DNA of 64,000 bases, taken from positions 5,874 through 69,873 of the forward strand of contig JBAZBP010000004.1 of NCBI GenBank assembly GCA_041671365.1, read 5' to 3'. The DNA is from Patescibacteria group bacterium (lineage in GTDB: Bacteria > Patescibacteriota > Patescibacteriia > Patescibacteriales > UBA12465). The translations under genes and the position numbers were made by a program. How positions within the stretch are numbered: position 1 is the stretch's first letter; every line of letters begins with the position of its first letter. A model generated the notes under the pieces. The model saw only the letters and a program-made list of their open reading frames with translations. It ran no database searches and had not been told where the DNA came from. Shown here in pieces: positions 4,146 to 51,127 of the stretch.

Positions 4146-6575
4146 TTAAAAATCTCTTAATTTGGCGGAAAATTTCTTAGCCAAGTGTTCAATTAACCCC
4201 TGCTGGATTATGTCAACCTCAGCCGCAACTAAAGTTTGCTTTTCCGATCGATAAGTTAAATGAAAAGCTAAGCTCTTTTGATTATTGGCTAATTTATTTC
4301 CATTATAAACATCGAAGAGTTCAGCCTCAACAATTAACGGATTAAACTTTACAATTTCCTGTCTTAAATCATTATATAATATTTCCGGCGCAACTACAAA
4401 AGACAGGTCTCTCACAACCGGCGGATATTTTGGCACTTCTTGAAAACAATTAGTCGGCAAACTAATAATTATATCAGCCAGATCTTTGAAATTAATTTCC
4501 GCCAGAACCACCGATTTTTTAAGATTAAAATTTAAGGCGATATCCGATCTAATTGCAGCGACTAAACCAATTTCTTTACCAAAAAGACTAATACTGGCTA
4601 CGGAATTTTTATCGGCCCAACCCGGAACTCTTTCTAAAACTGAAAATTCTGCAATAGCCTTATAGTTTATTAAGTTTTTAAATAAGCTGCCAATTATTCC
4701 CTTAAGACGATCAAATAAGCCATCCTCGCCTGCCAGGATCAACCCTAAGTGTTTTTCCTGATAAGGCAAGGTCTCGGCGGCGTTTAAATCTTTCGATAAA
4801 TTTCCCGGAGCCTTAAAAAAAACACTACCAATTTCTACAAAACCAAAAGTCTCTCTTTTGAATTGATTGGATTTAATATTAACAATTAAACCCGGCGCCA
4901 AAGATTGGCGCAACAACGTCTGAGCGTCCGACAAAGGGTTGACTAATTTTAAATATTGAGAAAAATCAATGTTTAGTTTTTTTAACTGCTCCTCGCCCAC
5001 AAATGAATAATTATAAACTTCATTTAAGGCATGCTCCAAGGTTAAAATATTTTTAACTTTTCTTTCCAACAATCTTTCTTGATTGACTTCCGGTAAATTT
5101 ACCGCCAGAATCGGTAGTTGCGAAACAATTTTTTCATAACCATAAAGACGTAATATTTCTTCCGCTAAATCTTCTTTAATGCTTATATCCTTGGTCGCTC
5201 TCCAAATAGGCACAGCTACTCCCAGGGAATCTATATTTTCATGAACTATCGTAAAACCTAATTTTTTTAAACTAATAATAATAAAGTCCCGAGGAATTTC
5301 TTGTCCTATTTTCGCAGTTAGCCAGGCCAAATTTAATTCAATAATTATTACCGGTTTCTCTTCTGAATGATAATCAACCAAGGAGCTAGCAATCTTCATT
5401 TGCGGACAAATATCTCTCAAAAGAGTTAAAAATCTTTTTAACGCAACTTCCGGCAACCGAACATCTAAGGATTTTTCAAAACGCACCGATGCTTCTGTCC
5501 TTAAACCCAAGCTCTGGGAGGTTTTTCTAATACTCGTGGCGGAAAAATTGGCTGACTCTAAAATTATAGATTTAGTTTCTGATTTAATTTCACTCTTTTT
5601 TCCTCCCATAACGCCGGCAATAGCGATAATATCCGGTCCATTAGTAATTACTAAATCATTAACATTCAACATCCGCTCTTTCTCATCCAATGTTTCTACG
5701 GACTCATGGTTTAAAGCGCGACGAACAATAATTTTTTCTACGTTGGCGGCATCAAAAGCGTGTAACGGCTGCCCGCAATCCAGCATAATATAATTAGTCA
5801 AATCTACAATATTGTTAAGCGGCCGCTGGTTAACAGCGATTAGCCTATTCTTAAGCCAATCCGGCGATTCTTTAATTTCAATATTATCAATTTTAATCGC
5901 CAAATATCGAGCACACTGCTCTTTCGCCTCGATGCGCACCTCTAATTTATTTTCTTTATCCGGAACAAAATCATGTTCTTGATCAAAAAATTTATCATAA
6001 CTTTTTAAAGACAAGTCGAAAATCGCCGAAGCCTCCCGAGCTAAACCATAATGATTTAACAAGTCCGGTCGATTAGACAGAGATTTATTATCTACTTCTA
6101 AAATTGTGTCGTCTACTTGTAAATATTTAGCAAACGATTCTCCCACCTTAGCGTTATCTTTTAAAACTAAAATCCCTTCATGATTTTTGCCTAAACCCAA
6201 TTCATCTTCGGCACAAATCATTCCGCTTGATTTTTCTCCGCGAATTAATGATTCTTTAATTTCTAAACCATTCGGTAGTTTAGCGCCGACAAGAGATACC
6301 GGAACTAATTGGCCGACCGCCAAATTAGGGGCGCCACAAACAATTTTTAATTTGGTTTTTTTAATATCTATCGTCGCCAGACGCAAACGATCGGCGTTGG
6401 GGTGTTTGCTTACTTCTAAAACACGCCCAACAACAACCTTATCAAATTGTTCTGCTTGACTGACTAAATTTTCAACTTCAACCGTATGACCGGTCAATCC
6501 GTCCGCGATATCTGAAGGTTTAATTTTGGCCGGTATTTTGACATAATCTTTCAGCCAATTAAAAGAAATATACAT
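4146..6575 (-). CDS. pheT: Phenylalanine--tRNA ligase beta subunit
   Basis: 809-aa ORF with an N-terminal tRNA-binding OB domain (VVGRVLEVSKHPNADRL), B3/4 and B5 regions and a C-terminal FDX-ACB-like domain. Directly downstream of pheS. Confidence 0.93.
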   Translation of the reverse strand: MYISFNWLKDYVKIPAKIKPSDIADGLTGHTVEVENLVSQAEQFDKVVVGRVLEVSKHPNADRLRLATIDIKKTKLKIVCGAPNLAVGQLVPVSLVGAKLPNGLEIKESLIRGEKSSGMICAEDELGLGKNHEGILVLKDNAKVGESFAKYLQVDDTILEVDNKSLSNRPDLLNHYGLAREASAIFDLSLKSYDKFFDQEHDFVPDKENKLEVRIEAKEQCARYLAIKIDNIEIKESPDWLKNRLIAVNQRPLNNIVDLTNYIMLDCGQPLHAFDAANVEKIIVRRALNHESVETLDEKERMLNVNDLVITNGPDIIAIAGVMGGKKSEIKSETKSIILESANFSATSIRKTSQSLGLRTEASVRFEKSLDVRLPEVALKRFLTLLRDICPQMKIASSLVDYHSEEKPVIIIELNLAWLTAKIGQEIPRDFIIISLKKLGFTIVHENIDSLGVAVPIWRATKDISIKEDLAEEILRLYGYEKIVSQLPILAVNLPEVNQERLLERKVKNILTLEHALNEVYNYSFVGEEQLKKLNIDFSQYLKLVNPLSDAQTLLRQSLAPGLIVNIKSNQFKRETFGFVEIGSVFFKAPGNLSKDLNAAETLPYQEKHLGLILAGEDGLFDRLKGIIGSLFKNLINYKAIAEFSVLERVPGWADKNSVASISLFGKEIGLVAAIRSDIALNFNLKKSVVLAEINFKDLADIIISLPTNCFQEVPKYPPVVRDLSFVVAPEILYNDLRQEIVKFNPLIVEAELFDVYNGNKLANNQKSLAFHLTYRSEKQTLVAAEVDIIQQGLIEHLAKKFSAKLRDF

Positions 6576-6579
6576 ATAA

Positions 6580-7608
6580 TTAAAATTGTTCTAAAAAATT
6601 AAGATCCCCGCCATTAAATAAACGAACATCTCCAATATTATACTTAAGCATCGCCAAACGATTTAAACCAAAACCGAAAGCTAACCCGGAATAAATTTCC
6701 GGGTCAAGGCCACCGGCACGCAAAACTTCCGGATGGACTAACCCGGCGCCGACGATTTCCAGCCAGCCGCTGTACTTACAAACCCGACAACCGCGACCGG
6801 CACACAAAAAACAAGTATATTCTCCATTATTGCCCGGCTCAACAAAAGGAAAAAATTTTGGACGCATTCTTAATTTAGTATTGGGCCCGAATAATCTTTG
6901 ACCAACGATTTCCAAGAAACTTTTTAAGTGGGCAAAATTAATATTTTTATCAATCAACAATCCTTCGACTTGATAAAAAGTATGATCATGCCGGGCGTCG
7001 GTCGCTTCGCTTCTAAAAACCCGCCCCGGAACAAGAACTTTCAATGGCGCCCCGTATTTTTGCATTGCCCGAATTTGCACCGGAGAAGTTTGCGTCCGCA
7101 TCAATAAATCATATTCTCCATTTTTATTCGGATAATCAACATAAAAAGTGTCTTGCATATCGCGCGCCGGATGGCTGGGCGGAACATTTAGAGCAGTAAA
7201 GTTAAAATAATCGCTTTCCAGTTCCGGTCCATCCAAAATCATAAAACCCATCGATATAAACAGATCCTCTAATTCGTTTTGCACCAAAGTAATCGGATTA
7301 AGATGGCCTTGAGGAAAATTAAATCCCGGTAAAGTAACGTCAATATCCGCTTCTTTCTTCTGAAAAGTATCTATGCTTTTTTTTGCTTCACTAAATTTAT
7401 GCTGTAACTCAATTTTAAGATTATTGGCCAATTCACCAATTTCCTGACGTAAATCCGCACTTAAGTCTTTTAGGCTATGCATGACTTCACTTAACTCTCC
7501 TTTGCGCGCTAAAAATCTAATTTCCAATTGACGGAGATGATCCTCGTTTTTAACTTGCGCTAATTGTTGTAAAAATTCGGCGCGTAATTTTTGTAATTTG
7601 TCTTTCAT
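6580..7608 (-). CDS. pheS: Phenylalanine--tRNA ligase alpha subunit
   Basis: 342-aa ORF with class II aaRS motifs (PGRVFRSEATDARHDHTFYQVEG, GLAFGFGLNRLAML) and a Cys-cluster insertion CFLCAGRGCRVC. Confidence 0.95.
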   Translation of the reverse strand: MKDKLQKLRAEFLQQLAQVKNEDHLRQLEIRFLARKGELSEVMHSLKDLSADLRQEIGELANNLKIELQHKFSEAKKSIDTFQKKEADIDVTLPGFNFPQGHLNPITLVQNELEDLFISMGFMILDGPELESDYFNFTALNVPPSHPARDMQDTFYVDYPNKNGEYDLLMRTQTSPVQIRAMQKYGAPLKVLVPGRVFRSEATDARHDHTFYQVEGLLIDKNINFAHLKSFLEIVGQRLFGPNTKLRMRPKFFPFVEPGNNGEYTCFLCAGRGCRVCKYSGWLEIVGAGLVHPEVLRAGGLDPEIYSGLAFGFGLNRLAMLKYNIGDVRLFNGGDLNFLEQF

Positions 7609-7612
7609 ATAG

Positions 7613-7993
7613 TTACCGGTTCTTTTTAAAACTAATCAAAACTAATTCTAAAATAGCAAAAATTATTACTAAAAGAGATAAATTTAACCAGTTGAATAAC
7701 TCTTGCGCTTGTAAAATTAAAATAATAATAACAAATAATGAAAATAAAAATGATTGACGAAAGGCCACTTTAACCGAATTAAATGCTAATTCTTTTTTTA
7801 GAGCCACGAAACGAATAAGAAAACCACTAAGCGCCGCCGTTCCAATTAAGGAAATAAAAAGAGCCAAATAAAACAGCAAGAATCCCAGCCAATTGGTGGC
7901 CAGCGGATCAACTAGGCTGGCGACAAACAAAAAAATACCCCAACAGACAAAACTTAGAATCGACATAACCCCCAGATAATTCTTTAAAGTCAT
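7613..7993 (-). CDS. Multi-pass membrane protein of unknown function
   Basis: 126-aa ORF with about four hydrophobic helices. Its ATG overlaps the valS TGA stop (ATGA), suggesting translational coupling. Confidence 0.55.
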   Translation of the reverse strand: MTLKNYLGVMSILSFVCWGIFLFVASLVDPLATNWLGFLLFYLALFISLIGTAALSGFLIRFVALKKELAFNSVKVAFRQSFLFSLFVIIILILQAQELFNWLNLSLLVIIFAILELVLISFKKNR

Positions 7994-10614
7994 AAACTTT
8001 TTAAGCTATTTTCTACCTTAAATAATTCTTTTTTATAGCTAGCTAATTTTTCTTTTTCGATATTAACTATGCTTTCCGGCGCCCGAACAATAAACTCTTT
8101 ATTTTGCAATTTTTTTTCTTGCAATCCAATGATTTTTTCTAAATTAGCTGTCTCCTTCTGCAAACGCTCTTTTTCTTTAACAACGTCTATCTCCCCGACT
8201 AGATAAATTTCTATTTCTCCAACAACAGCGGTTATTGCCTGTTCAACCTTCTCTCCACTTTCACATATTGTAACTTCCGACAAACCGGTTTTAAGATTTT
8301 TAATATTTTCTCTTTGACTCACCAATAGATCTAAATATTTATGACCATAAATAAAAGCTTTTAGTTTTTGGCTCGGCTCTATTTTGTTAACACTGCGAGC
8401 ATTTCTTATCGCTGTTACGACTTCTATTAAAACCTTAAAAGACCCAGATTCTTTATTTTCTTCGGAAGTGTTCTTTGGCCAAGCAGTTACCATTAACAAA
8501 TCGCTGCTTATACTCTGCCAAACGGTTTCAGTTACATAAGGAATAAAAGGGTGCCAAAGAATTAATAAATTTTTTAATAAATAAACCAATATTTCATCCT
8601 TATCTTTTTCTATTTTAGCAACTTCCAAATACCAATCCGCTAATTTACTCCAAGTAAATTCGCTTAGTTCGTCGGCGGCAAAAGAAAAATTTAAATCATC
8701 CAAATGTTTAGAGGCGCCAGCCACTAAATTGTTTAATTCTAAAAGAATCCACCGATCTGCTAGGGTTTTTGCTCTCGGACGAATGTTTAAATCTTGCTTT
8801 AAGGCACTTTCTGAAACCGATCCCAGAATATAACGAGATATATTCCAAAGCTTATTAATAAAATTACGTTTTATTTCCACCACTTCTTCATTATACCTAG
8901 AGTCATTACCGGGAGTCGAACCCATTAGCAGCGACAAACGTAAAGCGTCGGCGCCATATTTATCAATAATATCTAAAGGATCAACGCCATTACCCTTTGA
9001 TTTAGACATTTTTTTACCATTTTTATCTAAAACAGTGCCGTGTAGATATACTTTTTCAAAAGGAATCTCCTGAAGAGCAAAGAAAGACATCATAATCATT
9101 CTCGATACCCATAAAGTCAAAATGTCATAACCGGTTTCTATTACTTGCGTAGGGTGAAACCTGGATAGATCACCGCTTTTAATATTATTTTTATAATTAT
9201 CCGGCCAACCCAGCGTAGAAAACGTCCACATACCCGACGAAAACCAAGTGTCTAGCGTATCCTGATCATGTGTCCATCCGTCTCCCTCGGGAGTTTTTTC
9301 TCCGACATAAATTTCTTCTCCTTTGTACCAAACCGGAATTTCATGGCCATACCAAATCTGACGAGAAATACACCAATCGTGTAAATTAAACATCCAATCT
9401 TTAAAATTTTTACTAAATCTCTCCGGAAAAAATTGAATATCTTTTTTTTCAGCCGCCTCTAACGCTTTTTCTTTTAACGACTTTCCGCCCAGACGATCTA
9501 ATTTTTTATCAACACTTATAAACCATTGCTTAGAGGGAAGAGGCTCAATCGGAGTATCGCAGCGATAACAAACCGACAGGTTATTTATAATTTCTTCTTC
9601 TTTTTCCAATAAATTCTCCTTGATTAAAAAATTTACAATCATCTCGCGCGCTTCTTCAATTTTCAAACCTGAATAAGCGCCGAAGTCGTTTCTAATTAAA
9701 GCATCTTCATTAACAACTTTAATAATGGGCAGGTCATTAGCTTGCGCCATCTGCCAATCAATCATGGAATGTGCCGGCGTAACTCCCAACGCTCCAGTTC
9801 CAAACTCAGGTTCAACATTATAGTCGCTAATAATTTTAATTTTTAGTTTTTGGCCGCAAAAATCAACTTCATACTCTTGGCCGATATATTTTTTATAACG
9901 CTCATCCTTAGAATTAACAGCCACGGCCACGTCTCCCAACTTCGTTTCTGGACGAGTCGTTGAAATGGCTATGGGAAAATTTTGATCATATTTAAAGGTG
10001 TATAATTTGGCTTTTTGTTCTCGATGTTCTACCTCATCATCGGCCAGGGTAGAGTGGCATTTTGGGCACCAATTTACGATTCTTTCTCCGCGATAAATAA
10101 CTCCTTCGCGATACATGTCTAAAAACATAGTCTTTACCGCCCTTTTGCGCTCTTCATCCAGAGTAAAGGTAAGTCGGGACCAGTCCAAAGACGAGCCCAT
10201 TTTTTTGGTTTGGAGCAAAATCGTTGCCTGAGTTTCGTTAACAAACTTCCAAACTTCTTCTAAAAATTTCTCTCTTCCTAAATCATGACGAGTTTTTCCG
10301 CTGGTCATTAAAATTTTTTTTTCTACCACGTTTTGAGTCGCAATAGCGGCGTGATCGGTGCCCGGCAACCACAAAGTTCTTTCTCCTAGCATCCGATGAT
10401 ACCTGATTAATAAATCCTCAATCGCCAGCATGGCACTATGACCAATATGAAGCTTGGCTGTGATATTCGGGGGAGGGAGGACAATCGTATAATCTTTTGC
10501 GCTTTTTGGCAAATTTAAATTATCAGGGTTAAAAAGGCCTGATCTTTCCCATTTTTCATAAATTTTATCTTCATTTTCATTAGGACTATAAATTTTTTCT
10601 AATTCTTGTTTCAT
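7990..10614 (-). CDS. valS: Valine--tRNA ligase
   Basis: 874-aa ORF with class I motifs LHIGHS (HIGH) and KMSKSKGN (KMSKS), an editing-domain insertion and a C-terminal coiled coil. Confidence 0.95.
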   Translation of the reverse strand: MKQELEKIYSPNENEDKIYEKWERSGLFNPDNLNLPKSAKDYTIVLPPPNITAKLHIGHSAMLAIEDLLIRYHRMLGERTLWLPGTDHAAIATQNVVEKKILMTSGKTRHDLGREKFLEEVWKFVNETQATILLQTKKMGSSLDWSRLTFTLDEERKRAVKTMFLDMYREGVIYRGERIVNWCPKCHSTLADDEVEHREQKAKLYTFKYDQNFPIAISTTRPETKLGDVAVAVNSKDERYKKYIGQEYEVDFCGQKLKIKIISDYNVEPEFGTGALGVTPAHSMIDWQMAQANDLPIIKVVNEDALIRNDFGAYSGLKIEEAREMIVNFLIKENLLEKEEEIINNLSVCYRCDTPIEPLPSKQWFISVDKKLDRLGGKSLKEKALEAAEKKDIQFFPERFSKNFKDWMFNLHDWCISRQIWYGHEIPVWYKGEEIYVGEKTPEGDGWTHDQDTLDTWFSSGMWTFSTLGWPDNYKNNIKSGDLSRFHPTQVIETGYDILTLWVSRMIMMSFFALQEIPFEKVYLHGTVLDKNGKKMSKSKGNGVDPLDIIDKYGADALRLSLLMGSTPGNDSRYNEEVVEIKRNFINKLWNISRYILGSVSESALKQDLNIRPRAKTLADRWILLELNNLVAGASKHLDDLNFSFAADELSEFTWSKLADWYLEVAKIEKDKDEILVYLLKNLLILWHPFIPYVTETVWQSISSDLLMVTAWPKNTSEENKESGSFKVLIEVVTAIRNARSVNKIEPSQKLKAFIYGHKYLDLLVSQRENIKNLKTGLSEVTICESGEKVEQAITAVVGEIEIYLVGEIDVVKEKERLQKETANLEKIIGLQEKKLQNKEFIVRAPESIVNIEKEKLASYKKELFKVENSLKSL

Positions 10615-44060: not shown

Positions 44061-45371
44061 ATGCAAGTTACAAAAAAAGATTTGGACAAATCACAAATAG
44101 AATTACTCGTGGAATTAACGCCGGAAGAATTTGCGCCTTATATTGTTAAGGGCGTGGAAAAAGTTTCTAAAGATGTAAAAATTGAAGGCTTTCGTCCCGG
44201 GAAAGTTCCGTTTGATATCTTAAAACAGAAAATCGGTGAGATGACGATTTTAGAGGAAGCGGCTCATATCGCCATTAATAAAACCATTGACGAAGTAATC
44301 ATGCAAAATACTATGGAGCGCCGAGCTATCGGCCAGCCTCAAGTTAATGTTACTAAATTAGCTCCCAATAATCCTCTAGAATATAAAATTATTTTATCTT
44401 TATTGCCAACAGTGGCCCTAGGAAAGTATAAAGATTTAGAACTAAAAACAGAAGAAGCTAAGATAGACAATAAGGAACTAGATAAGGCTTTAAACGATTT
44501 GCGAGAAATGCGAGCCAAGGAAGAAGTAGTAGAGCGAGCCGTCGAAGAAGGGGATAAGGTAACGGCGGATATAAAAATGTTTTTAGATAAAGTTCCGCTA
44601 GAAGACGGCCAACACAAAGATTTAGCAATTTTGTTGGGTAAAGATTATTTTGTCCCCGGGTTTGACCATAAATTAATTGGAGCTAAAAAAGATGAAATTC
44701 GGAAATTTTTATTGCCCTACCCCGACGATCATCATCAAAAAAATTTGGCCGGTAAGATGGTCGAGTTTGAAGTAAAAATAAAAGATGTTTATAGCCGAAC
44801 ACTACCGGGTCTGAATGATGAATTGGCGGTCATATTTCAGCTTAAAGATTTAGAAGAATTAAAAAAGAATTTGCGGGAAAGTTTATTACACGAAAAAAAA
44901 CATCAGGTTGACGCTAAAAACGAAGCAGCCCTGCTCACTAAAATAATTGAAGATACTAAGTTTGGGGAATTGCCGGAAATATTAATTAATGCCGAGTTAA
45001 AAAATATGTTGGAAGAATTGGAGCAGAATATTACTCGTCAGGGCGGAAAATTTGACGATTATCTCCAACACCTTAAAAAGGATCGCGCCGCGTTAATGTT
45101 AGAGCTAACCCCCAACGCTATCAAAAGAGTTAAGTCCGCTTTAGCCATCCGCGAAATGGCTCTAGTTGAAAAGATTTCCCCGACCGATAAAGAAATCCAT
45201 GAAAAGATTGAAGACCTGAAAAAACAATATGCTAATAATCAAGAGGTTTTAAAAATGCTGGAAGAGCCCGGTTATCACAGTTATTTAGAAAATATTTTAA
45301 CTAACGAAAAAGTTATTGCCAAGCTAAAAGACTGGAACTATGCCCCAACTGACTCAAAACAAAAAAGCTAA
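44061..45371 (+). CDS. tig: Trigger factor
   Basis: 436-aa ORF with the ribosome-binding signature GFRPGKVP, a central FKBP-like region and a C-terminal helical arm. Confidence 0.9.
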   Translation: MQVTKKDLDKSQIELLVELTPEEFAPYIVKGVEKVSKDVKIEGFRPGKVPFDILKQKIGEMTILEEAAHIAINKTIDEVIMQNTMERRAIGQPQVNVTKLAPNNPLEYKIILSLLPTVALGKYKDLELKTEEAKIDNKELDKALNDLREMRAKEEVVERAVEEGDKVTADIKMFLDKVPLEDGQHKDLAILLGKDYFVPGFDHKLIGAKKDEIRKFLLPYPDDHHQKNLAGKMVEFEVKIKDVYSRTLPGLNDELAVIFQLKDLEELKKNLRESLLHEKKHQVDAKNEAALLTKIIEDTKFGELPEILINAELKNMLEELEQNITRQGGKFDDYLQHLKKDRAALMLELTPNAIKRVKSALAIREMALVEKISPTDKEIHEKIEDLKKQYANNQEVLKMLEEPGYHSYLENILTNEKVIAKLKDWNYAPTDSKQKS

Positions 45372-45798
45372 TTTCGATTACGAACTCCTAGAAAAATATG
45401 AGGCGGGTTTAGTTTTATATGGACACGAAGTTAAAGCGATTCGCGCCGGTCAAATCAGTTTAAAGGGAAGTTTTATTTCCATTCGTACAAAAAATAATAA
45501 AACAGAATTATATTTAATCGGTTGTCAGGTCTCACCTTACAAAAATGCTGGACCACTTCCCGAGTACAATCAAACCAGAGAAAGAAAGTTGCTTTTAAAA
45601 CGTGAAGAAATTAAGCGTTTATTAGGGAAAAAACAAGTTGAGGGCTTGACACTAATCCCTCTCAAAATATATACTAATCATAGTTTTCTGAAGTTAGAAT
45701 TCGCCTTAGCTCGCGGTAAAAAACAATACGACAAGAGAGACACTATAAAGAAGCGAGAAGTTGAACGCAGTTTGCGGTCTTTAACAAAGAGACGTTAG
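45340..45798 (+). CDS. smpB: SsrA-binding protein SmpB
   Basis: 152-aa ORF with NKKANFDYELLEKYEAGLVLYGHEVKAIR and a basic C-terminal tail. Overlaps the tig end by 32 nt, and its stop overlaps tmRNA position 1. Confidence 0.9.
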   Translation: MPQLTQNKKANFDYELLEKYEAGLVLYGHEVKAIRAGQISLKGSFISIRTKNNKTELYLIGCQVSPYKNAGPLPEYNQTRERKLLLKREEIKRLLGKKQVEGLTLIPLKIYTNHSFLKLEFALARGKKQYDKRDTIKKREVERSLRSLTKRR

Positions 45799-46206
45799 GG
45801 GATGCCAGGCATCGACAGTCGGGACTTTGGCTAAATATTCGAGACGTGCTTAGCTGTCACGTTAAACCGGTTAAAAAAACACAAATGCCAAAACGGCAAG
45901 AGCATTCACTTGGTTAACTCCGAGTTATGCTCCAGTTATGGCCTAATAAATAAGGCTATAACCATCGAGGGTGATAATTTCTCATGGTCATTTTCTCGGT
46001 GTTATTCGCTCGCCTCGTTTCGGCGAAGCGGGTATGAGGATAAATGTTTTTTGCTCTTTCCGGAAAACATAGAAACAATAGGAAGATCGCTTTAATTGCT
46101 TTTTGTTCGGTTATTGATAGTTAAGGCTAAAAAAATAAATCGGACTATTCTTGTAAATGTATTTAGGCAAACCGATTGGACATGGGTTCAATTCCCATCA
46201 TCTCCA
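45798..46206 (+). ncRNA. ssrA: tmRNA (SsrA)
   Basis: 5' GGGGATG pairs with 3' CATCTCC (G3-U wobble, the Ala identity pair), preceded by T arm ATGGG-TTCAATT-CCCAT. Internal tag frame is GCC...GCC TAA TAA at 45887-45949. Adjacent to smpB. Confidence 0.85.
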
Positions 46207-46216
46207 CAAGTATAAG

Positions 46217-46300
46217 GCCGCGGTGGCGGAACTGGTAGACGCGCTGGACTTAAAATCCAGTTGTAGCGATGCAGTGCGGGTTCGATTCCCGCCCGCGGCA
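46217..46300 (+). tRNA. tRNA-Leu, anticodon TAA (UAA)
   Basis: Hand fold. Acceptor GCCGCGG/CCGCGGC, anticodon stem CTGGA/TCCAG with loop CTTAAAA, long variable arm, T arm GCGGG-TTCGATT-CCCGC. Confidence 0.92.
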
Positions 46301-46321
46301 CGTAAATTTAATTATAGAGAT

Positions 46322-46393
46322 GCGGGTATCGTATAGTGGCTATTATGCGACCTTGCCAAGGTCGAGAGACGGGTTCGATTCCCGTTACCCGCT
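46322..46393 (+). tRNA. tRNA-Gly, anticodon GCC
   Basis: Hand fold. Acceptor GCGGGTA/TACCCGC, anticodon stem CGACC/GGTCG with loop TTGCCAA, T arm ACGGG-TTCGATT-CCCGT, weak AT-rich D stem. Confidence 0.9.
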
Positions 46394-46401
46394 CTAAAAT
46401 A

Positions 46402-46434
46402 AAAACACAGGATTTTATCCTGTGTTTTTATTTT
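46402..46434. terminator. Bidirectional terminator after tRNA-Gly
   Basis: 11-bp stem AAAACACAGGA / TCCTGTGTTTT, with T-runs following the hairpin in both orientations. Confidence 0.75.
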
Positions 46435-46435
46435 C

Positions 46436-46592
46436 TGGTACGAGCCAGGGGATCGAACAGGTTGGAAGCGAGGCAAGCCCGAGCCGCCCTTCTGAGCGGC
46501 GAGGGCAAAGATTAGCGTCGGACGCCAACCCAGGACGAGTGAGTAACGCGGAAGCGGTGCGAGTGAGAAGTTACCGTTACCCGCCCAGACAC
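46436..46592. ncRNA. Unclassified GC-rich structured element (candidate ncRNA, or tRNA-derived/att-like remnant); strand uncertain
   Basis: About 62% G+C (98 of 157 by hand count) in an AT-rich intergenic region, bounded by terminator hairpins. The minus strand ends GTTCGATCCCCTGGCTCGTACCA. Internal helices include GGTTGG/CCAACC and GCCGC/GCGGC. No family assigned. Confidence 0.4.
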
Positions 46593-46707
46593 ATTAAATA
46601 TACTAATATTAGTATTTTTTTGTTATATAATTAGTAGCGGACCGGTAAAATGATGGTAAAATAGATAGTTGTGATGCTAGTGTGAAGAAAAATCAATATT
46701 TTTATGT

Positions 46708-46736
46708 ATTGACAAAAATTAGTAATAGTGATATAA
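46708..46736 (+). promoter_or_regulatory. Consensus sigma-70-type promoter upstream of the lipoprotein gene
   Basis: TTGACA (46708-46713), 17-nt spacer ending in TGA, then TATAAT (46731-46736). Lies about 125 nt upstream of the ATG at 46860. Confidence 0.55.
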
Positions 46737-46859
46737 TAGTTTCGTTAAAATAGTCCATTACCAAACAAGTTAAATTGGGTTAATTGTTAAATTTATCTGA
46801 GTTTCAGGTGTATTTAATAATTAACCTAAAATCGATTAACTTCAAAAAAGGATATAACA

Positions 46860-47279
46860 ATGAAACAATTATTTTTTTCTCTCATCTTCATTAGTCTTGC
46901 CTCCATGTTTTTCACCGCTTGCTCTAAAGAAGATCAAGTCGGCAAAAAAATTAGCATTAGTTCTAATTTTCCTGATTCATCGTCAGTATTATTTCAAGGC
47001 GCTGTAAAAAATGCCGAATCGGAAAATTATATGGGATCGGTGTTTGTAAGATGCCGATATAAAACAGAAATTGGACTCCCGGCAGGCATAGATGTCGTAG
47101 TTCCAAAATCAAGAGCGGCTAATCTATCCGTAGGCGATACTCTGTATTTTATAAGAGTCTCTGTAAGTTCAGAGGGCGGGATGGATCATGAGCCAAAATC
47201 GGCCTATATGGGTATGTTTTATTCTACTGACACCTTGGATTTATCTTTGTATGGTATAAAAACCGTGCATAAATTGTAG
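46860..47279 (+). CDS. Putative lipoprotein of unknown function
   Basis: 139-aa ORF with a signal peptide ending in the lipobox-like FFTAC|S. AAGGA lies 8 nt upstream of the ATG. No family recognised. Confidence 0.6.
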   Translation: MKQLFFSLIFISLASMFFTACSKEDQVGKKISISSNFPDSSSVLFQGAVKNAESENYMGSVFVRCRYKTEIGLPAGIDVVVPKSRAANLSVGDTLYFIRVSVSSEGGMDHEPKSAYMGMFYSTDTLDLSLYGIKTVHKL

Positions 47280-49252: not shown

Positions 49253-49819
49253 ATGATAGAAAAATATAAAAAACAAATTTTGCGATTTTACCAAAGGAAT
49301 CGTCGGATGCCTAACTACGCCGAGATAATGATGCTTCTCGGTTTTAAATCCAAGAATTCTGTTTTTAAATTGGTGGATAAACTAAAGAAAGAAAACTTTT
49401 TAGGTAAAGATATAAAAGGTAAATTAATTCCTAAGAATATTTATGGCGAACTAAGAGTCTTGGGTCAAGTGGAGGCTGGTTTTCCTTCTCCAGCCGAAGA
49501 AGAGTTGTCTGACACGATGAGTATGGATGAATATCTAATTAAGAATAAAGAAGCAACCTATATGCTTAAGGTTAGTGGTGAGTCGATGATAGATGCTGGT
49601 ATTATGCCCGGCGACATGGTTTTGGTGGATCGTAGTTTAACCGCCGTCGATGGTAACATCGTTATCGCCGAAGTAGACAATCAATGGACTATAAAATACC
49701 TTAGGAAGAAAGGGAAAGACGTTTATCTGGAACCGGCTAATAAGAAATTTTCTATTATCCGACCGAAGGAAGAATTAAAGATCGCGGCAGTGGTCAAAGC
49801 GGTAGTCAGAAAGTATTAA
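49253..49819 (+). CDS. lexA: LexA-like repressor (wHTH plus S24 self-cleaving peptidase)
   Basis: 188-aa ORF with an N-terminal wHTH (MPNYAEIMMLLGFKSKNSVFKLVDKL), Ala-Gly cleavage context VEAGFP, catalytic Ser in VSGESM and Lys in WTIKYL. Confidence 0.85.
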   Translation: MIEKYKKQILRFYQRNRRMPNYAEIMMLLGFKSKNSVFKLVDKLKKENFLGKDIKGKLIPKNIYGELRVLGQVEAGFPSPAEEELSDTMSMDEYLIKNKEATYMLKVSGESMIDAGIMPGDMVLVDRSLTAVDGNIVIAEVDNQWTIKYLRKKGKDVYLEPANKKFSIIRPKEELKIAAVVKAVVRKY

Positions 49820-49822
49820 TAT

Positions 49823-51127
49823 ATGTCTTTCAATTTATTTTCTTTTCCGCAAGCGATTCTCCACGTCGACGGTGATTGTTTTTTCGCGTCCTGTGAAGTC
49901 GCCCGTCACCCCGAGCTCAAGGGTAGGCCGGTTATAACTGGTTTAGAGCGGGGAATTGTTTCTTCTTTGACCTATGAAGCTAAGGCTCGTGGCGTGAAAC
50001 GAGCAATGTCTTTATGTGACGTCAAGAAGATTTGTCCCGACGTGGTATTTCTACCATCGGATTATGAGACCTATAGTTTGTATTCTTTACGGATGTTTAA
50101 TATTGTTAGGCGCTTTACGCCAGATGTAGAAGAATATAGCATTGATGAATGTTTTGCCGATTTAACCGGACTCCAACGACCGCTCAACATGTCCTATGAG
50201 AAAATGGCCGAGAAGATTAAAGCTACTTTAGATAATGAATTAGGTTTTACCTTTTCCGTCGGATTAGCTCCAACCAAAGTCCTGGCTAAATTGGGTTCTA
50301 AATGGAAAAAACCTTCAGGCTTAACAATTATTCCCGGCCGGGATATTCATCTTTATCTTGATAAATTAAGTATTGATAAAGTTTGGGGTATCGGTCCACA
50401 AACCACCGCCTATTTAAATAAATATGGAATTAGAACTGCTCGGCAATTTGCTGAAAAGGATTTGGATTGGGTTCAAACCAGATTAACCAAACCGCATCAG
50501 GAGATTTGGCAGGAGTTAAGGGGGAATATGATTTATAAGGTTGACCCCGATAAAAAGAATAGTTATCAATCAATCAGTAAAACCAAAACATTTACTCCGC
50601 CGTCTAAGGAGAGAGAATATGTTTTTAGTCAGTTATCTAAAAATACTGAAAATTCCTGCATTAAATTGCGCCGCTATCAGTTAGCGACCAAGAAAGTGTT
50701 TTTTTTCTTGAAGACTCAAGACTTTCACTACCATGGGTATGAGTTTAAACTTATTAGGCCGACCGATAATCCGATTGAGATAATTAAAATGATTGATAAG
50801 TATTTTAATCAAGTATTTCTTCAAGATAAGTTATTTCGGGCGACGGGGATAATACTAGCAGATTTAGTCGAGAACACATCTCGTCAGGCCGACCTATTTA
50901 ATGAAGTAATAACCGCAGAAAAGATTTCCAAAATATTCGGCAGCGTTGATGGTATTTCTAAACGTTACGGTAAACATACTTTATTTCTTGGTTCCAGTTT
51001 CGAGGCGATGAACAAATCTCAACACGAAGGAGATAGACAGATAGCGGCCGAACGCAAAGAGGAATTGTTTAAAGGAGAAACATTCAGGAAAAGATTGGCT
51101 ATTCCTTTTTTGGGAGGGGCGGTATAG
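49823..51127 (+). CDS. Y-family (UmuC/DinB-like) translesion DNA polymerase
   Basis: 434-aa ORF starting 4 nt after lexA, with ILHVDGDCFFASCE, SIDECFADLTG and VWGIGPQT blocks. Confidence 0.88.
   Translation: MSFNLFSFPQAILHVDGDCFFASCEVARHPELKGRPVITGLERGIVSSLTYEAKARGVKRAMSLCDVKKICPDVVFLPSDYETYSLYSLRMFNIVRRFTPDVEEYSIDECFADLTGLQRPLNMSYEKMAEKIKATLDNELGFTFSVGLAPTKVLAKLGSKWKKPSGLTIIPGRDIHLYLDKLSIDKVWGIGPQTTAYLNKYGIRTARQFAEKDLDWVQTRLTKPHQEIWQELRGNMIYKVDPDKKNSYQSISKTKTFTPPSKEREYVFSQLSKNTENSCIKLRRYQLATKKVFFFLKTQDFHYHGYEFKLIRPTDNPIEIIKMIDKYFNQVFLQDKLFRATGIILADLVENTSRQADLFNEVITAEKISKIFGSVDGISKRYGKHTLFLGSSFEAMNKSQHEGDRQIAAERKEELFKGETFRKRLAIPFLGGAV

Follow-up and report, generated by a model that had tools for sequence, protein, structure and literature searches.

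A GC-rich folded element behind a tRNA-Gly gene of Patescibacteria and its relation to a family of gene-less, tRNA-associated units

Patescibacteria have tiny genomes in which few mobile elements have been recognised, and little is understood of the way in which they obtain accessory and defence genes. The window analysed here, a 64,000-nucleotide stretch of a Patescibacteria contig, has an overall GC content of 37%. Within it, a block of 157 nucleotides (46436–46592) containing 98 G or C residues (62.4%), to which an earlier note on this DNA had drawn attention, stands between flanks of 30% GC. What is this block, and how did it come to lie behind a tRNA gene? The earlier note proposed an undescribed structured ncRNA with a tRNA-like module or the decayed att-type remnant of a foreign, GC-richer element. 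All sequence details that it listed are present; it is their reading that changes. We consider the block, together with the hairpin at 46396–46434, to be one partly decayed unit of a family of gene-less cassettes that target tRNA and tmRNA genes (probability roughly 0.6). Apparently undescribed, this structured, gene-less family is widespread in Patescibacteria and seems to insert behind tRNA and tmRNA genes.

The element behind tRNA-Gly

The host gene of the element is tRNA-Gly(GCC), which closes the cluster smpB-tmRNA-tRNA-Leu-tRNA-Gly. The same cluster is found in Falkowbacteria-like relatives (L001–L041, those with contigs reaching far enough). The block is bounded by terminators on both sides, T1 on the left and T0 on the right, as previously described (Table 1). 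Comparisons of empty and occupied sites, in which the hairpin beside the tRNA arrives with the element, show that T1 is part of the inserted unit. T0 is probably the ancestral terminator of the tRNA operon, because the distal terminator is that of the empty site both in L001 versus L004 and L145 and in L118 versus L100.

Table 1. Features of the tRNA-Gly locus and its element (positions within the window)
Feature	Position	Strand	Basis or remarks
tRNA-Gly(GCC)	46322..46394	+	ARAGORN; Rfam RF00005, 57.8 bits
tRNA-Gly nt 53–72, GTTCGATTCCCGTTACCCGC	46373..46392	+	Repeat analysis (D2, I9)
Hairpin T1, A-tract/stem/T-tract terminator	46396..46434		Perfect 18+18-nt palindrome (I1)
Spacer CTGGTACGAGCCA	46435..46447	+	Unconserved across copies
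5' arm GGGGATCGAAC	46448..46458	+	Reverse complement of tRNA nt 53–63
P2 and enclosed domain	46460..46530	+	GGTTGG 46460–46465 pairs with CCAACC 46525–46530
H1	within 46473–46510	+	Tandem G·A pairs; seen in folds of 11 copies
H2 stump	46511–46524	+	H2 seen in folds of 11 copies
Joining strand CAGGACGAGTGAG	46531..46543	+	Conserved; family consensus CWGGACAAGTGAG
H3 hairpin	46544..46559	+	Pairing and covariation; GGAA tetraloop 46550–46553
Core 3' end CGAGTGAGAAG	46560..46570	+	Family consensus GCGAGCGCGRWA
Mutated direct copy of tRNA-Gly nt ~59–73, TTACCGTTACCCGCCCA	46571..46587	+	Repeat D2
T0, AT hairpin (46596–46619) and T-run	46596..46626		Repeat I5

The tRNA sequence GTTCGATTCCCGTTACCCGC is copied at both ends of the element, inverted in the 5' arm and directly at the 3' end. 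The window arm carries a single A-to-G change that still permits a G·U pair. The direct repeat at 46571–46584 (TTACCGTTACCCGC) is identical to tRNA-Gly positions 46379–46392 at 13 of 14 nucleotides (D2); the earlier note had overlooked it.

On the minus strand, GTTCGATCCCCTGGCTCGTACCA (46458–46436) is unique in the window even when three mismatches are allowed. It had been read as a tRNA-like 3' end with a T-loop, an acceptor strand and an encoded ACCA. The supposed T-loop is the family's constant 5' arm: it corresponds to the reverse complement of the T-loop and 3' T-stem of the tRNA and differs from one neighbouring tRNA to the next. The supposed acceptor strand, GGCTCGTACCA, comes from the reverse complement of the spacer; since this spacer is unconserved between copies, the resemblance to an acceptor end is most likely coincidental. 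What the element does contain of a tRNA is the T-loop and 3' T-stem, copied in inverted form, and the acceptor 3' strand, copied directly; there is no cloverleaf. That this is not a canonical tRNA agrees with ARAGORN, which finds no tRNA at 46436–46592 on either strand, and with Rfam, where no tRNA-clan match appears there at E≤10. We also rejected a minus-strand tRNA, a piece of tmRNA and an intron-bearing tRNA: there is no complementary acceptor strand and no ARAGORN or Rfam match, and the strand statistics are the wrong ones.

The pairing that forms P2, the hairpin at 46478–46505, the CGC-GGAA-GCG hairpin and the direct repeat CGAGTGAG at 46536 and 46560 are all as reported before. Compared with L137 and L028, the window copy has about 22 nucleotides deleted from H2. 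The copy is partly decayed, with H2 lost and P1 mostly lost or weakened, and for this reason is probably inert. An open reading frame does run through the block (46422..46634). We take it for the by-product of composition that it had been suspected to be, its frame being unconserved in homologues, which differ by indels.

Among known RNA families, the window copy matches nothing in Rfam 15 at the gathering threshold or at E≤10, which bears out the earlier observation. When intact copies at six loci were compared with Rfam at E≤1, only hairpin-like chance matches over the tRNA/terminator/arm palindrome were obtained. SRP RNA, 6S RNA, RNase P and riboswitches were rejected, with no match by eye or in permissive Rfam searches.

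A recurrent folded core between partial copies of the tRNA

Homologues of the element were found at the same spot in nine related Falkowbacteria-like genomes. Those behind tRNA-Gly are in L004, L006, L007, L018, L022, L026, L028 and L033, and L034 and L155 retain remnants. A DNA pattern derived from the family and anchored on the joining strand, combined with a covariance model, recovered 93 further copies in 74 metagenome contigs. The core of about 170 nucleotides recurs more than 100 times at at least nine different tRNA or tmRNA targets. Copies lie 41–57 nucleotides downstream of tRNA-Gly, -Trp, -Glu, -Asp, -Ala and -Cys and about 60 nucleotides downstream of tmRNA, on the same strand as the gene. 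Near-identical cores are found at different tRNAs, beside unrelated hairpins, and the core 3' end is the limit of similarity between such copies. A terminator-like hairpin precedes 79 of 84 copies (94%), 6–23 nucleotides upstream of the element, and in 48 of 83 the 3' repeat is itself followed by a terminator. The helices account for the high GC content of all copies, whose hosts are AT-rich Patescibacteria. Nothing points to the foreign GC-rich origin suggested earlier. We rejected a phage, plasmid or viral source, as the family has no phage or plasmid matches and no convincing match to a viral contig; the single pattern match to a viral contig scores just 13 bits with the covariance model.

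Every copy starts with a 5' arm, the reverse complement of nt 53–64 of its own tRNA (T-loop and 3' T-stem), continues with the folded core and ends in a direct copy of tRNA nt 58–73. No block of the family is better conserved than the arm, which tracks T-loop variants of the adjoining tRNA or tmRNA (for example GTCCAAT, GTTCAAT, GAGTCC and GACTCC). It also follows T-loop nt 53–57, a part that is missing from the element's own 3' repeat. In a comparison across copies, arm and target form Watson-Crick pairs throughout. The arm could have arisen by snap-back copying of the tRNA 3' end; against this, the complementarity is usually 11–14 nucleotides with a sharp edge and random sequence beyond, and reaches 18–20 nucleotides in three copies only (L018, L098 and L154). 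At the other end, nt 58–72 are copied perfectly (15/15) in 28 of 48 tRNA-adjacent copies, compared with at most 11/15 in controls, and the copies in L028 and L033 include CCA. Arm and 3' repeat, the latter 16–22 nucleotides long, are both derived from the target tRNA and form an inverted repeat of 7–9 base pairs. A MITE would have the terminal inverted repeats of a parent transposon and a short target duplication; no parent transposon was found.

Tandem G·A pairs and GNRA loops abound in the core, which consists of P2, enclosing H1 and H2, followed by H3. Conservation and covariation in relatives had been named as a test of the element, and both are found: it is conserved in many genomes, and 90.4% of helix cells are paired compared with 72.8% in shuffles, none of 500 shuffles being as good. 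P2 is 96% paired, shows covariation in six of six pairs and holds the top mutual-information pairs. H3 is 92% paired with covariation likewise in six of six pairs, and its Watson-Crick pairs swap with tandem G·A pairs. A mutual-information scan for pseudoknots and additional long-range pairs gave P2 and H3 only. The plus strand, which is the strand of the tRNA, is the folded one: its helices contain G·U in 110 cells versus A·C in 14, and there are 84 GNRA hairpins on the plus strand compared with 12 on the minus strand. RNA would account for the G·U and tandem G·A pairs and the GNRA loops of the folds no less well than single-stranded DNA. What holds of the idea of a structured ncRNA is that the element is conserved, structured and outside Rfam; its proposed strand and tRNA-like end do not. 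Nor does the element look like a free-standing RNA gene, with a terminator-like hairpin before most copies and, in the window, an arm that starts 13 nucleotides behind the terminator hairpin, too close for a promoter to fit in between.

Units, arrays and cargo

Two comparisons of empty and occupied sites define the inserted unit. L001 is an empty site; L004 and L145 hold at least two identical units there, followed by the terminator of L001. Similarly, L118 is empty and L100 has two units before identical downstream sequence. In both cases the unit comprises the terminator, the arm, the core and the copy of the tRNA 3' end. This evidence is drawn from other members of the family because the nearest relatives of the window are rearranged at the element site. 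The junction is placed between tRNA nt 57 and 58, as read from the start of identity, and could fall anywhere in the shared 16–22 nucleotides.

Related genomes differ by entire units. The commonest form is the minimal, gene-less unit; truncated copies are frequent, and identical tandem copies occur. Tandem units with identical hairpins (L018, L098 and L135) could reflect an assembly artefact or unequal crossing-over and not repeated insertion. Units also stack in tandem and alternate with accessory genes (for example in L094, L086 and L126), the cargo behind the tRNA and tmRNA genes including Fic, NYN, restriction, PLD, patatin and arsenic-resistance genes. At the head of such arrays stands a tRNA or tmRNA gene that follows housekeeping genes such as smpB or tig. 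Some gene-carrying segments of arrays (L118, L082) are flanked by copies of the tRNA 3' end with no core, so the core may not be needed for every insertion.

We looked for an enzyme that might move these units. Pfam searches covered 126 neighbouring ORFs (8–14 kb around each copy) and 20 cargo ORFs: the 25 Pfam families best represented among the neighbouring ORFs include no recombinase, none was seen in the cargo ORFs read individually, and an all-against-all comparison of 252 neighbouring ORFs gave no recurrent partner. Within this scope no Phage_integrase, IS110, TnpB or IscB-type gene was seen near any copy. The sole matches related to mobile enzymes are a weak RT-like ORF in L007 and a small HNH protein in L086. 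On these searches we rejected a recombinase, transposase, TnpB/IscB or reverse transcriptase encoded alongside the element.

Proposed mechanism, rival explanations and known systems

The best reading is that the element is non-autonomous and resembles an integron cassette that targets the tRNA T-loop. Its layout is a terminator hairpin, a short spacer, an arm of 11–14 nucleotides, a folded core of 130–170 nucleotides and the copy of tRNA nt 58–73. Site-specific recombination would insert the unit with its junction at nt 57/58 of the T-loop. A fresh insert would supply a fresh tRNA 3' end and terminator, so that the tRNA stays intact, and the old 3' end would be displaced downstream as the direct repeat. 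The arm-plus-core module would be a cis-acting recombination or targeting site, comparable to the attC site of integrons and recognised as a folded single strand, its arm pairing with the target T-loop and T-stem across the junction. Since no gene for the enzyme was found beside the element, we infer that it is supplied in trans. Of the earlier candidates, the decayed att-type remnant is the nearest, being tied to the tRNA 3' end; its foreign GC-rich origin is the part that falls away. More tentatively, the arm-plus-core may be the guide of a nucleic-acid-guided recombination, as RNA or single-stranded DNA, that directs the trans-encoded enzyme to matching T-arms, so that cassettes, and accessory genes with them, would be placed behind any tRNA or tmRNA gene whose T-arm matches.

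The family marks sites at which accessory and defence genes accumulate, and its covariance model and DNA pattern provide a searchable signature for them. It also explains many assembly breaks right behind tRNA genes in CPR genome bins, and such blocks should not be annotated as tRNA fragments or ORFs. If the arm truly guides insertion, the module would be a compact, programmable integration device with no protein gene of its own, of interest to mobile-element biology and genome engineering. A guided system of this kind would constitute an integron-like gene-capture platform for reduced CPR genomes, and a new mechanistic type.

Several other explanations deserve comparison with the cassette reading. 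A plus-strand guide RNA, produced by read-through from the tRNA operon or from an excised form, might direct a trans-encoded recombinase or nuclease, its 5' arm pairing with T-arm DNA by a logic like that of IS110 bridge RNA or omega-RNA. The plus-strand-specific folding, the G·U pairs, GNRA tetraloops and tandem G·A pairs that swap with Watson-Crick pairs, the contiguous target complement that spans the junction and follows nt 53–57, and the terminator behind so many of the 3' repeats are what such an RNA would predict. We nevertheless find it doubtful: there is no promoter, a strong terminator lies just upstream of 94% of copies, no IS110, TnpB or IscB-type gene is nearby, and the bipartite internal-loop guides of bridge RNAs are lacking. 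The arm also recalls the internal guide sequence of a group I intron: its 3' half would pair with nt 53–57, the flank upstream, and its 5' half with nt 58–64, the flank downstream. This is exactly the P10 and P1 order of complementarity, and the arm opens the fold on its 5' side, immediately ahead of P2. Group I introns devoid of homing endonucleases are plentiful in Patescibacteria (PMC13011429). A minimal reverse-splicing ribozyme is very improbable even so. Intact copies give no group I match (RF00028) at E≤1, the nucleotide before the repeat is usually A, a terminal G is not conserved, the junction lacks a U·G pair, and the mutual-information scan shows no sign of a pseudoknotted P3–P9-like core. 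Moreover, the 'intron' would hold a terminator and sometimes entire genes, and the tRNA is already complete without splicing.

The direct repeats of the tRNA 3' end that flank the insert are also what the scar of a large integrative element (prophage, ICE or island) at tRNA-Gly would leave, the core then being leftover attP-arm DNA. Integrase-bearing islands do use tRNA-Gly in L019, L027 and L035, and the downstream region is hypervariable between relatives. However, L019- and L027-type integrases are absent from core-carrying loci, the same core recurs at many targets, gene-less minimal units are the commonest form, even as identical tandem copies, and phage, plasmid or convincing viral matches are lacking. 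Random scars would not covary as the core helices do, and we judge this origin improbable. Strong selection on the structure across diverged lineages could instead reflect a host function, such as that of an ncRNA gene with a tRNA-linked role (3'-end mimic or sponge, helper of processing or termination), inherited vertically with losses. The constant same-strand position behind tRNA genes and the 3' end that equals a tRNA 3' end, with CCA included in copies such as L028 and L033, would suit it; but the element is present at the tRNA-Gly locus in only about a quarter of related genomes, and close relatives differ in its presence. Near-identical cores at different tRNAs, identical tandem copies, frequent truncation and the missing promoter make a host gene improbable as well. 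The main proposal of the earlier note, a minus-strand ncRNA with a tRNA-like 3' module and encoded ACCA, could draw on GTTCGATCCCCTGGCTCGTACCA beside a bidirectional hairpin and on a weak promoter-like site (9/12) on the minus strand at 46626–46597. It is hardly credible, since its helices would contain 110 A·C mismatch cells and pyrimidine-pyrimidine tandems, GNRA loops are scarce on that strand, the fold of the window element has a z-score of only −1.7 there, the acceptor and ACCA lie in the unconserved spacer, and neither ARAGORN nor Rfam sees a tRNA-like gene.

Among known systems, integron cassettes and their attC sites (e.g., Vibrio VCRs) come close to the cassette family as we read it. 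Both form arrays of short units at a fixed site, each unit having a single gene or none, with the integrase outside the cassette and accessory genes as cargo. An attC site is likewise an imperfect palindrome of 60–170 nucleotides in which structure is conserved over sequence and one strand folds well. The family differs in that its targets are many tRNA and tmRNA genes, at their T-loop and 3' end, and not an attI beside intI, and no IntI-like gene or attI was found at the array head (8–14 kb flanks). Its site is a multi-helix fold with a junction in place of a simple hairpin with R and L boxes, includes 11–14 nucleotides complementary to its target and restores the gene into which it inserts. 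The attC core sites R'' (RYYYAAC) and R' (GTTRRRY) are also not matched: the arm ends in ATCGAAC, one mismatch from RYYYAAC, and the family 3' end (GCGCGRWA/ATTCCC, the slash marking the boundary) has no GTTRRRY.

To our knowledge, neither a conserved folded core nor an inverted T-loop copy is known for tRNA-targeting integrative elements. The family has an inverted T-loop copy and a core that covaries, in units of only about 200–260 bp with no integrase among neighbouring or cargo ORFs. In other respects it resembles such elements (phage and ICE att sites, CIMEs and the tycheposons of Prochlorococcus; bioRxiv 10.1101/2020.12.28.424599): insertion is into the 3' part of a tRNA, an element-borne copy keeps the gene intact, the displaced 3' end forms a direct repeat that flanks the insert, and variable islands are built from tandem, degraded arrays. 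The bridge (seek) RNAs of IS110/IS1111 elements are similarly structured non-coding modules of 150–200 nucleotides within a mobile element, in which about 11–14 nucleotides are the complement of the insertion target and span the crossover (PMC11208160). Unlike IS110, the family element has no adjoining DEDD recombinase or other Tnp gene. In the folds its guide is one contiguous 5' arm, whereas bridge RNAs have two internal loops with split target and donor guides, and its shared repeat is 16–22 nucleotides compared with the 2-nucleotide core of IS110.

The position of the element brings to mind a further group of mobile elements. In bacteria, group II introns of class C insert immediately behind intrinsic terminator hairpins. 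The family element, in a single orientation, similarly follows a terminator-like hairpin at a distance of a few nucleotides. It has no group II domains or reverse transcriptase, and group II introns have not been detected in Patescibacteria (PMC13011429). In the family, unlike in these introns, the hairpin arrives with the element.

A GC-rich cassette behind tRNA-Gly

The GC-rich block behind tRNA-Gly, in which an earlier note saw a tRNA-like end on the minus strand, is a decayed copy of a structured cassette without genes. The family to which it belongs spans the CPR, is apparently undescribed and targets the T-loops of tRNA and tmRNA genes. The finding is real, and of more interest than a lone odd hairpin. 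As the note had stated, the block is rich in G+C (98 of 157 nt, or 62.4%, versus 30% in the flanks and 37% in the whole window) and boxed in by hairpins. All of the pairings and repeats it listed were found, and its claim that no known family matches is borne out by Rfam, in which nothing matched the element at gathering scores across the whole window or at E<=10 across 46380-46680. ARAGORN placed no tRNA within the element. Its right end (46571-46584, TTACCGTTACCCGC), overlooked at that time, is a direct copy of the tRNA-Gly 3' end (46379-46392) at 13 of 14 positions.

Features of the window around the element
Feature	Position	Remark
smpB	45340-45798	cluster 5' of element
tmRNA	45798-46207	cluster 5' of element
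tRNA-Leu	46217-46301	cluster 5' of element
tRNA-Gly(GCC)	46322-46394	last gene of the cluster; element next
Left hairpin T1	46396-46434	perfect 18+18-nt A-tract/T-tract palindrome
Element	46436-46592	GC-rich block
Right AT hairpin	46596-46619 (46596-46626 with T-run)	T-run behind stem

The tmRNA of the window is 410 nt long, versus 380-390 nt in most relatives, and includes an additional GC-rich hairpin, roughly 24 nt long (CGCTCGCCTCGTTTCGGCGAAGCGGG, 46006-46034), that is missing from the tmRNA of L157, a locus whose SmpB is 98% identical. The variable region 3' of the element starts with a perfect TTGACA-17-TATAAT promoter with extended TG (46709-46737), located before a lipoprotein-like ORF (46860-47279). 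Judged from ORF translations, a lexA-like repressor gene and then a dinB-type (Pol IV) gene (49253-51127) lie 2.7 kb 3' of the element, past four small unannotated ORFs.

By its SmpB, the organism is a Falkowbacteria-like member of Patescibacteria. A genome scan with SmpB yielded about 44 relatives, in which the order smpB-tmRNA-tRNA-Leu-tRNA-Gly is the same wherever contigs are long enough. Most lack the element. Homologues lie directly behind the tRNA-Gly terminator in eight loci (L004, L006, L007, L018, L022, L026, L028 and L033), with a second, partial copy in L006 and a shortened copy in L034. A pattern of two conserved blocks regained precisely the eight full copies and then 74 metagenome contigs. 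A covariance model built on the eight copies gave 93 matches in these contigs, scoring 23 to 143 bits, and scores the window copy at 118.7 bits. Phage and plasmid collections held no match to the family; one pattern match in a viral contig reached a model score of only 13 bits. No description of the family turned up in full-text literature searches. The group I introns that have been reported from tRNA genes of Patescibacteria occupy anticodon-loop sites (PMC13011429). Many records labelled 'uncultured Gammaproteobacteria bacterium' (L003, L008, L009, L011 and other CAY*/CAZ* entries) appear to be mislabelled, judging by 76-82% SmpB identity and tmRNA-tRNA synteny with Patescibacteria.

We compared the window copy (46448-46587) with the intact relatives L137, L028 and L114. 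About 22 nt of hairpin H2 are gone, leaving GCGTCGGACG|CCAACC. The arm is altered to GGGGAT, and the 3' repeat is mutated at three positions (GTTACCGTTACCCGCC versus ATTCCCGTTACCCGCT), which leaves helix P1 weak. The window copy is an ageing unit and probably inactive. Close relatives already differ at this site: L155 (SmpB 89% identical) retains a 40-nt stump of the element, and L157 has no tRNA-Gly after tRNA-Leu.

Copied ends and a common core fold

Distance to the upstream gene was scored only where the contig includes that gene. The element lies on the same strand, 41-57 nt 3' of tRNAs for Gly (GCC, TCC, CCC), Trp, Glu (TTC, CTC), Asp, Ala and Cys, and about 60 nt 3' of tmRNA in L095 and L103. 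Its 3' end duplicates the part of that tRNA that runs from about T-loop nt 58 up to and including the discriminator (AATTCCCTCATCCCGTGC behind Trp, AATTCCCCTAGGGACTAC behind Glu, GAGTCCCCTCAAGTCCAC behind Ala, ACTCCCACTCGAGCCTC behind Cys). The 15 nucleotides 58-72 are copied perfectly in 28 of 48 tRNA-adjacent copies; elements compared with other isoacceptors as a control matched at 11 of 15 at most. At the other end, the 5' arm block reads GGGAATCGAAC and is reverse-complementary to tRNA nt 53-63/64. It becomes GGACTCGAAC at Ala and GGGAGTCGAAC at Cys, and reads ATTGGAC where the T-loop is GTCCAAT and ATTGAAC where it is GTTCAAT, tmRNA included. The perfect arm match covers 11-14 nt in nearly all copies and 18-20 nt in L018, L098 and L154. 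Because the arm is an inverted copy that varies with the tRNA, the minus-strand 'T-loop' described earlier is this arm, and the 'acceptor-like' GGCTCGTACCA beyond it is spacer, unconserved among copies.

Several copies depart from the usual ends. The inverted tRNA 3'-end copy is near full length (18-20 nt) in L018 (5122-5150), L154 (748-770) and L098, where tRNA end, terminator and arm form a single palindrome of about 100 nt. In the tmRNA-linked copies (L095 950-1119, L103 1-137, L154 26-195), arm and 3' repeat fit the T-arm/acceptor end of tmRNA (GTTCAATTCCCGCCATCTCCAC). In L007/L099, L110/L141 and L142/L105, directly behind tRNA, recurrent non-tRNA sequences (GAGGATGGGGATT... or GGGTTTTTGGTTTTTGGAC) replace the tRNA 3'-end repeat. 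A tRNA-Glu lineage (L118 3440-3475, L100, L082, L109, L116, L119) has in common a mini-hairpin GGCGTTAGCC, which separates terminator from arm, and a conserved terminator GCTCAGCGTTAGCTGGGC; the conserved part of its unit therefore reaches further 5'.

Minimum-energy folds of eleven copies give one architecture: P1 (arm and 3' repeat), a 6-bp P2 around H1 and H2, a conserved CWGGACAAGUGAG strand, H3 and GCGAGCGCGRWA. The helices are broken by tandem 5'-GA/GA-3' pairs, and many end in GGAA, GAAA or GCAA loops. Across an alignment of 93 sequences, 90.4% of cells hold standard pairs versus 72.8% in shuffles and 34-46% with slid partners, and none of 500 shuffles matched the observed values on any of five measures. 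P2 is 96% and H3 92% paired, and all pairs in both vary on both sides. Their pairs also rank first in a mutual-information scan, in which Watson-Crick pairs of H3 swap with tandem G·A; the scan found no further long-range helix.

Folding of the core's plus strand is under selection. G·U outnumbers A·C in the core helices (110 versus 14), and GNRA-tetraloop hairpins in 75 distinct full copies are commoner in the plus-strand reading (84) than in the minus-strand one (12), so the folding strand is that of the tRNA, as RNA or single-stranded DNA. The earlier idea of a minus-strand tRNA-like RNA gene is rejected in favour of the cassette family.

Gain of units, arrays and cargo

Units made up of hairpin, arm, core and tRNA nt 58-73 are gained behind tRNA and tmRNA genes, all of them in a single orientation; they leave the tRNA intact and accumulate there. 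Two pairs of empty and occupied sites, at tRNA-Gly and tRNA-Glu, show the insertion. In the empty locus L001, tRNA-Gly is followed by ACAAAACAAAGGCAGTCCGAAAGGGCTG...TATCACTTAGACTTGCAAA. In L004 and L145, the two sides of one assembly break, tRNA-Gly is followed by at least two identical units (hairpin-spacer-arm-core-ATTCCCGTTACCCGCTC) and then by the L001-type terminator and downstream sequence. Likewise, tRNA-Glu, terminator and NYN gene of empty L118 recur in L100, with two units separating the tRNA from the rest. The hairpin nearer the tRNA is therefore brought in by the element, and the ancestral terminator is the distal one. In the window, T1 would correspondingly be part of the unit, and the AT hairpin the old terminator.

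Mobility is indicated by several further signs. Near-identical cores occur at different tRNAs, such as L028 (Gly) and L090 (Glu), whose likeness runs from the arm to GCGCGRWA while their hairpins are unrelated. There are tandem arrays (L106, L134, L136, L154, L100, L135) and arrays interspersed with genes (L094, L086, L126, L082, L102, L113). In distal copies, a decayed tRNA 3' end is often still present 5' of the hairpin (a match of at least 10/11 in 7 of 26, versus about 4% of controls), and shortened copies are common (L034, L155 and the second copies of L006, L140 and L146).

Contig breaks often fall in or just past elements, as at the ends of L004, L022, L018, L098 and L136 and the start of L145; in one genome both sides of a break (L004, L145) were paired up. 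Because assemblies break at the elements, the family contributes to the fragmentation of CPR genome bins. In L007, the island behind the element (6108-8271) combines an HTH gene with an NYN-domain gene and an ORF that weakly resembles reverse transcriptases (YVDD motif, RVT_1 E=7e-5). It is a possible defence module of the retron or Abi type. L118 and L100 again have NYN genes as cargo.

Proposed mechanism and known systems

We propose that insertion proceeds by site-specific exchange, with a junction that would coincide with T-loop position 57/58 or fall just 3' of it, since the identity between element 3' end and tRNA begins there (A58 for Gly, Glu, Trp, Cys, Asp and tmRNA; C56 for Ala). In a circle, the order of parts would be arm-core-(nt 58-73)-hairpin(-cargo). 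Exchange would complete the tRNA with the element-borne 3' end and hairpin, leaving the old 3' end behind the core. The arm complements the unbroken target on both sides of the junction: its 3' half, CGAAC, would pair with nt 53-57 and its 5' half with nt 58-64. After insertion the 5' half would pair automatically with the repeat as P1. The 3' half has no partner within the element, yet tracks T-loop variants, which speaks for arm-target pairing being important in its own right.

In an all-against-all comparison of 252 neighbouring ORFs, the only recurrent neighbours were upstream housekeeping genes. The 25 best-represented Pfam families among 126 downstream or cargo ORFs included no recombinase, transposase, TnpB/IscB or reverse transcriptase; hits among these ORFs were ArsP/ArsR, Fic, NYN, CYTH, NUDIX, type ISP restriction, Z1, PLD, patatin and others. 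Twenty cargo ORFs taken one by one gave LRR, HNH, kinase, PMT_2, CARDB, Fic, CYTH, NYN and one weak RVT_1. Tyrosine integrases adjoin tRNA-Gly in L019, L027 and L035, and no relatives of these were found at core-bearing loci.

In 79 of 84 copies, a terminator-like hairpin ends 6-23 nt 5' of the point where the model begins; only 48 of 83 have one downstream. In the window, 13 nt separate hairpin and arm start, and a promoter scan found no plus-strand promoter in this gap. As to the active form, the upstream terminators and missing promoter point to DNA, the GNRA loops and G·U pairs to RNA.

Nearest in kind are integron cassettes and non-autonomous tRNA-site integrative elements, from both of which the family differs in its covarying multi-helix core and inverted target copy. 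The arrangement resembles that of an integron cassette with its attC site, to which the family would add a target-complementary guide; the enzyme would be supplied in trans.
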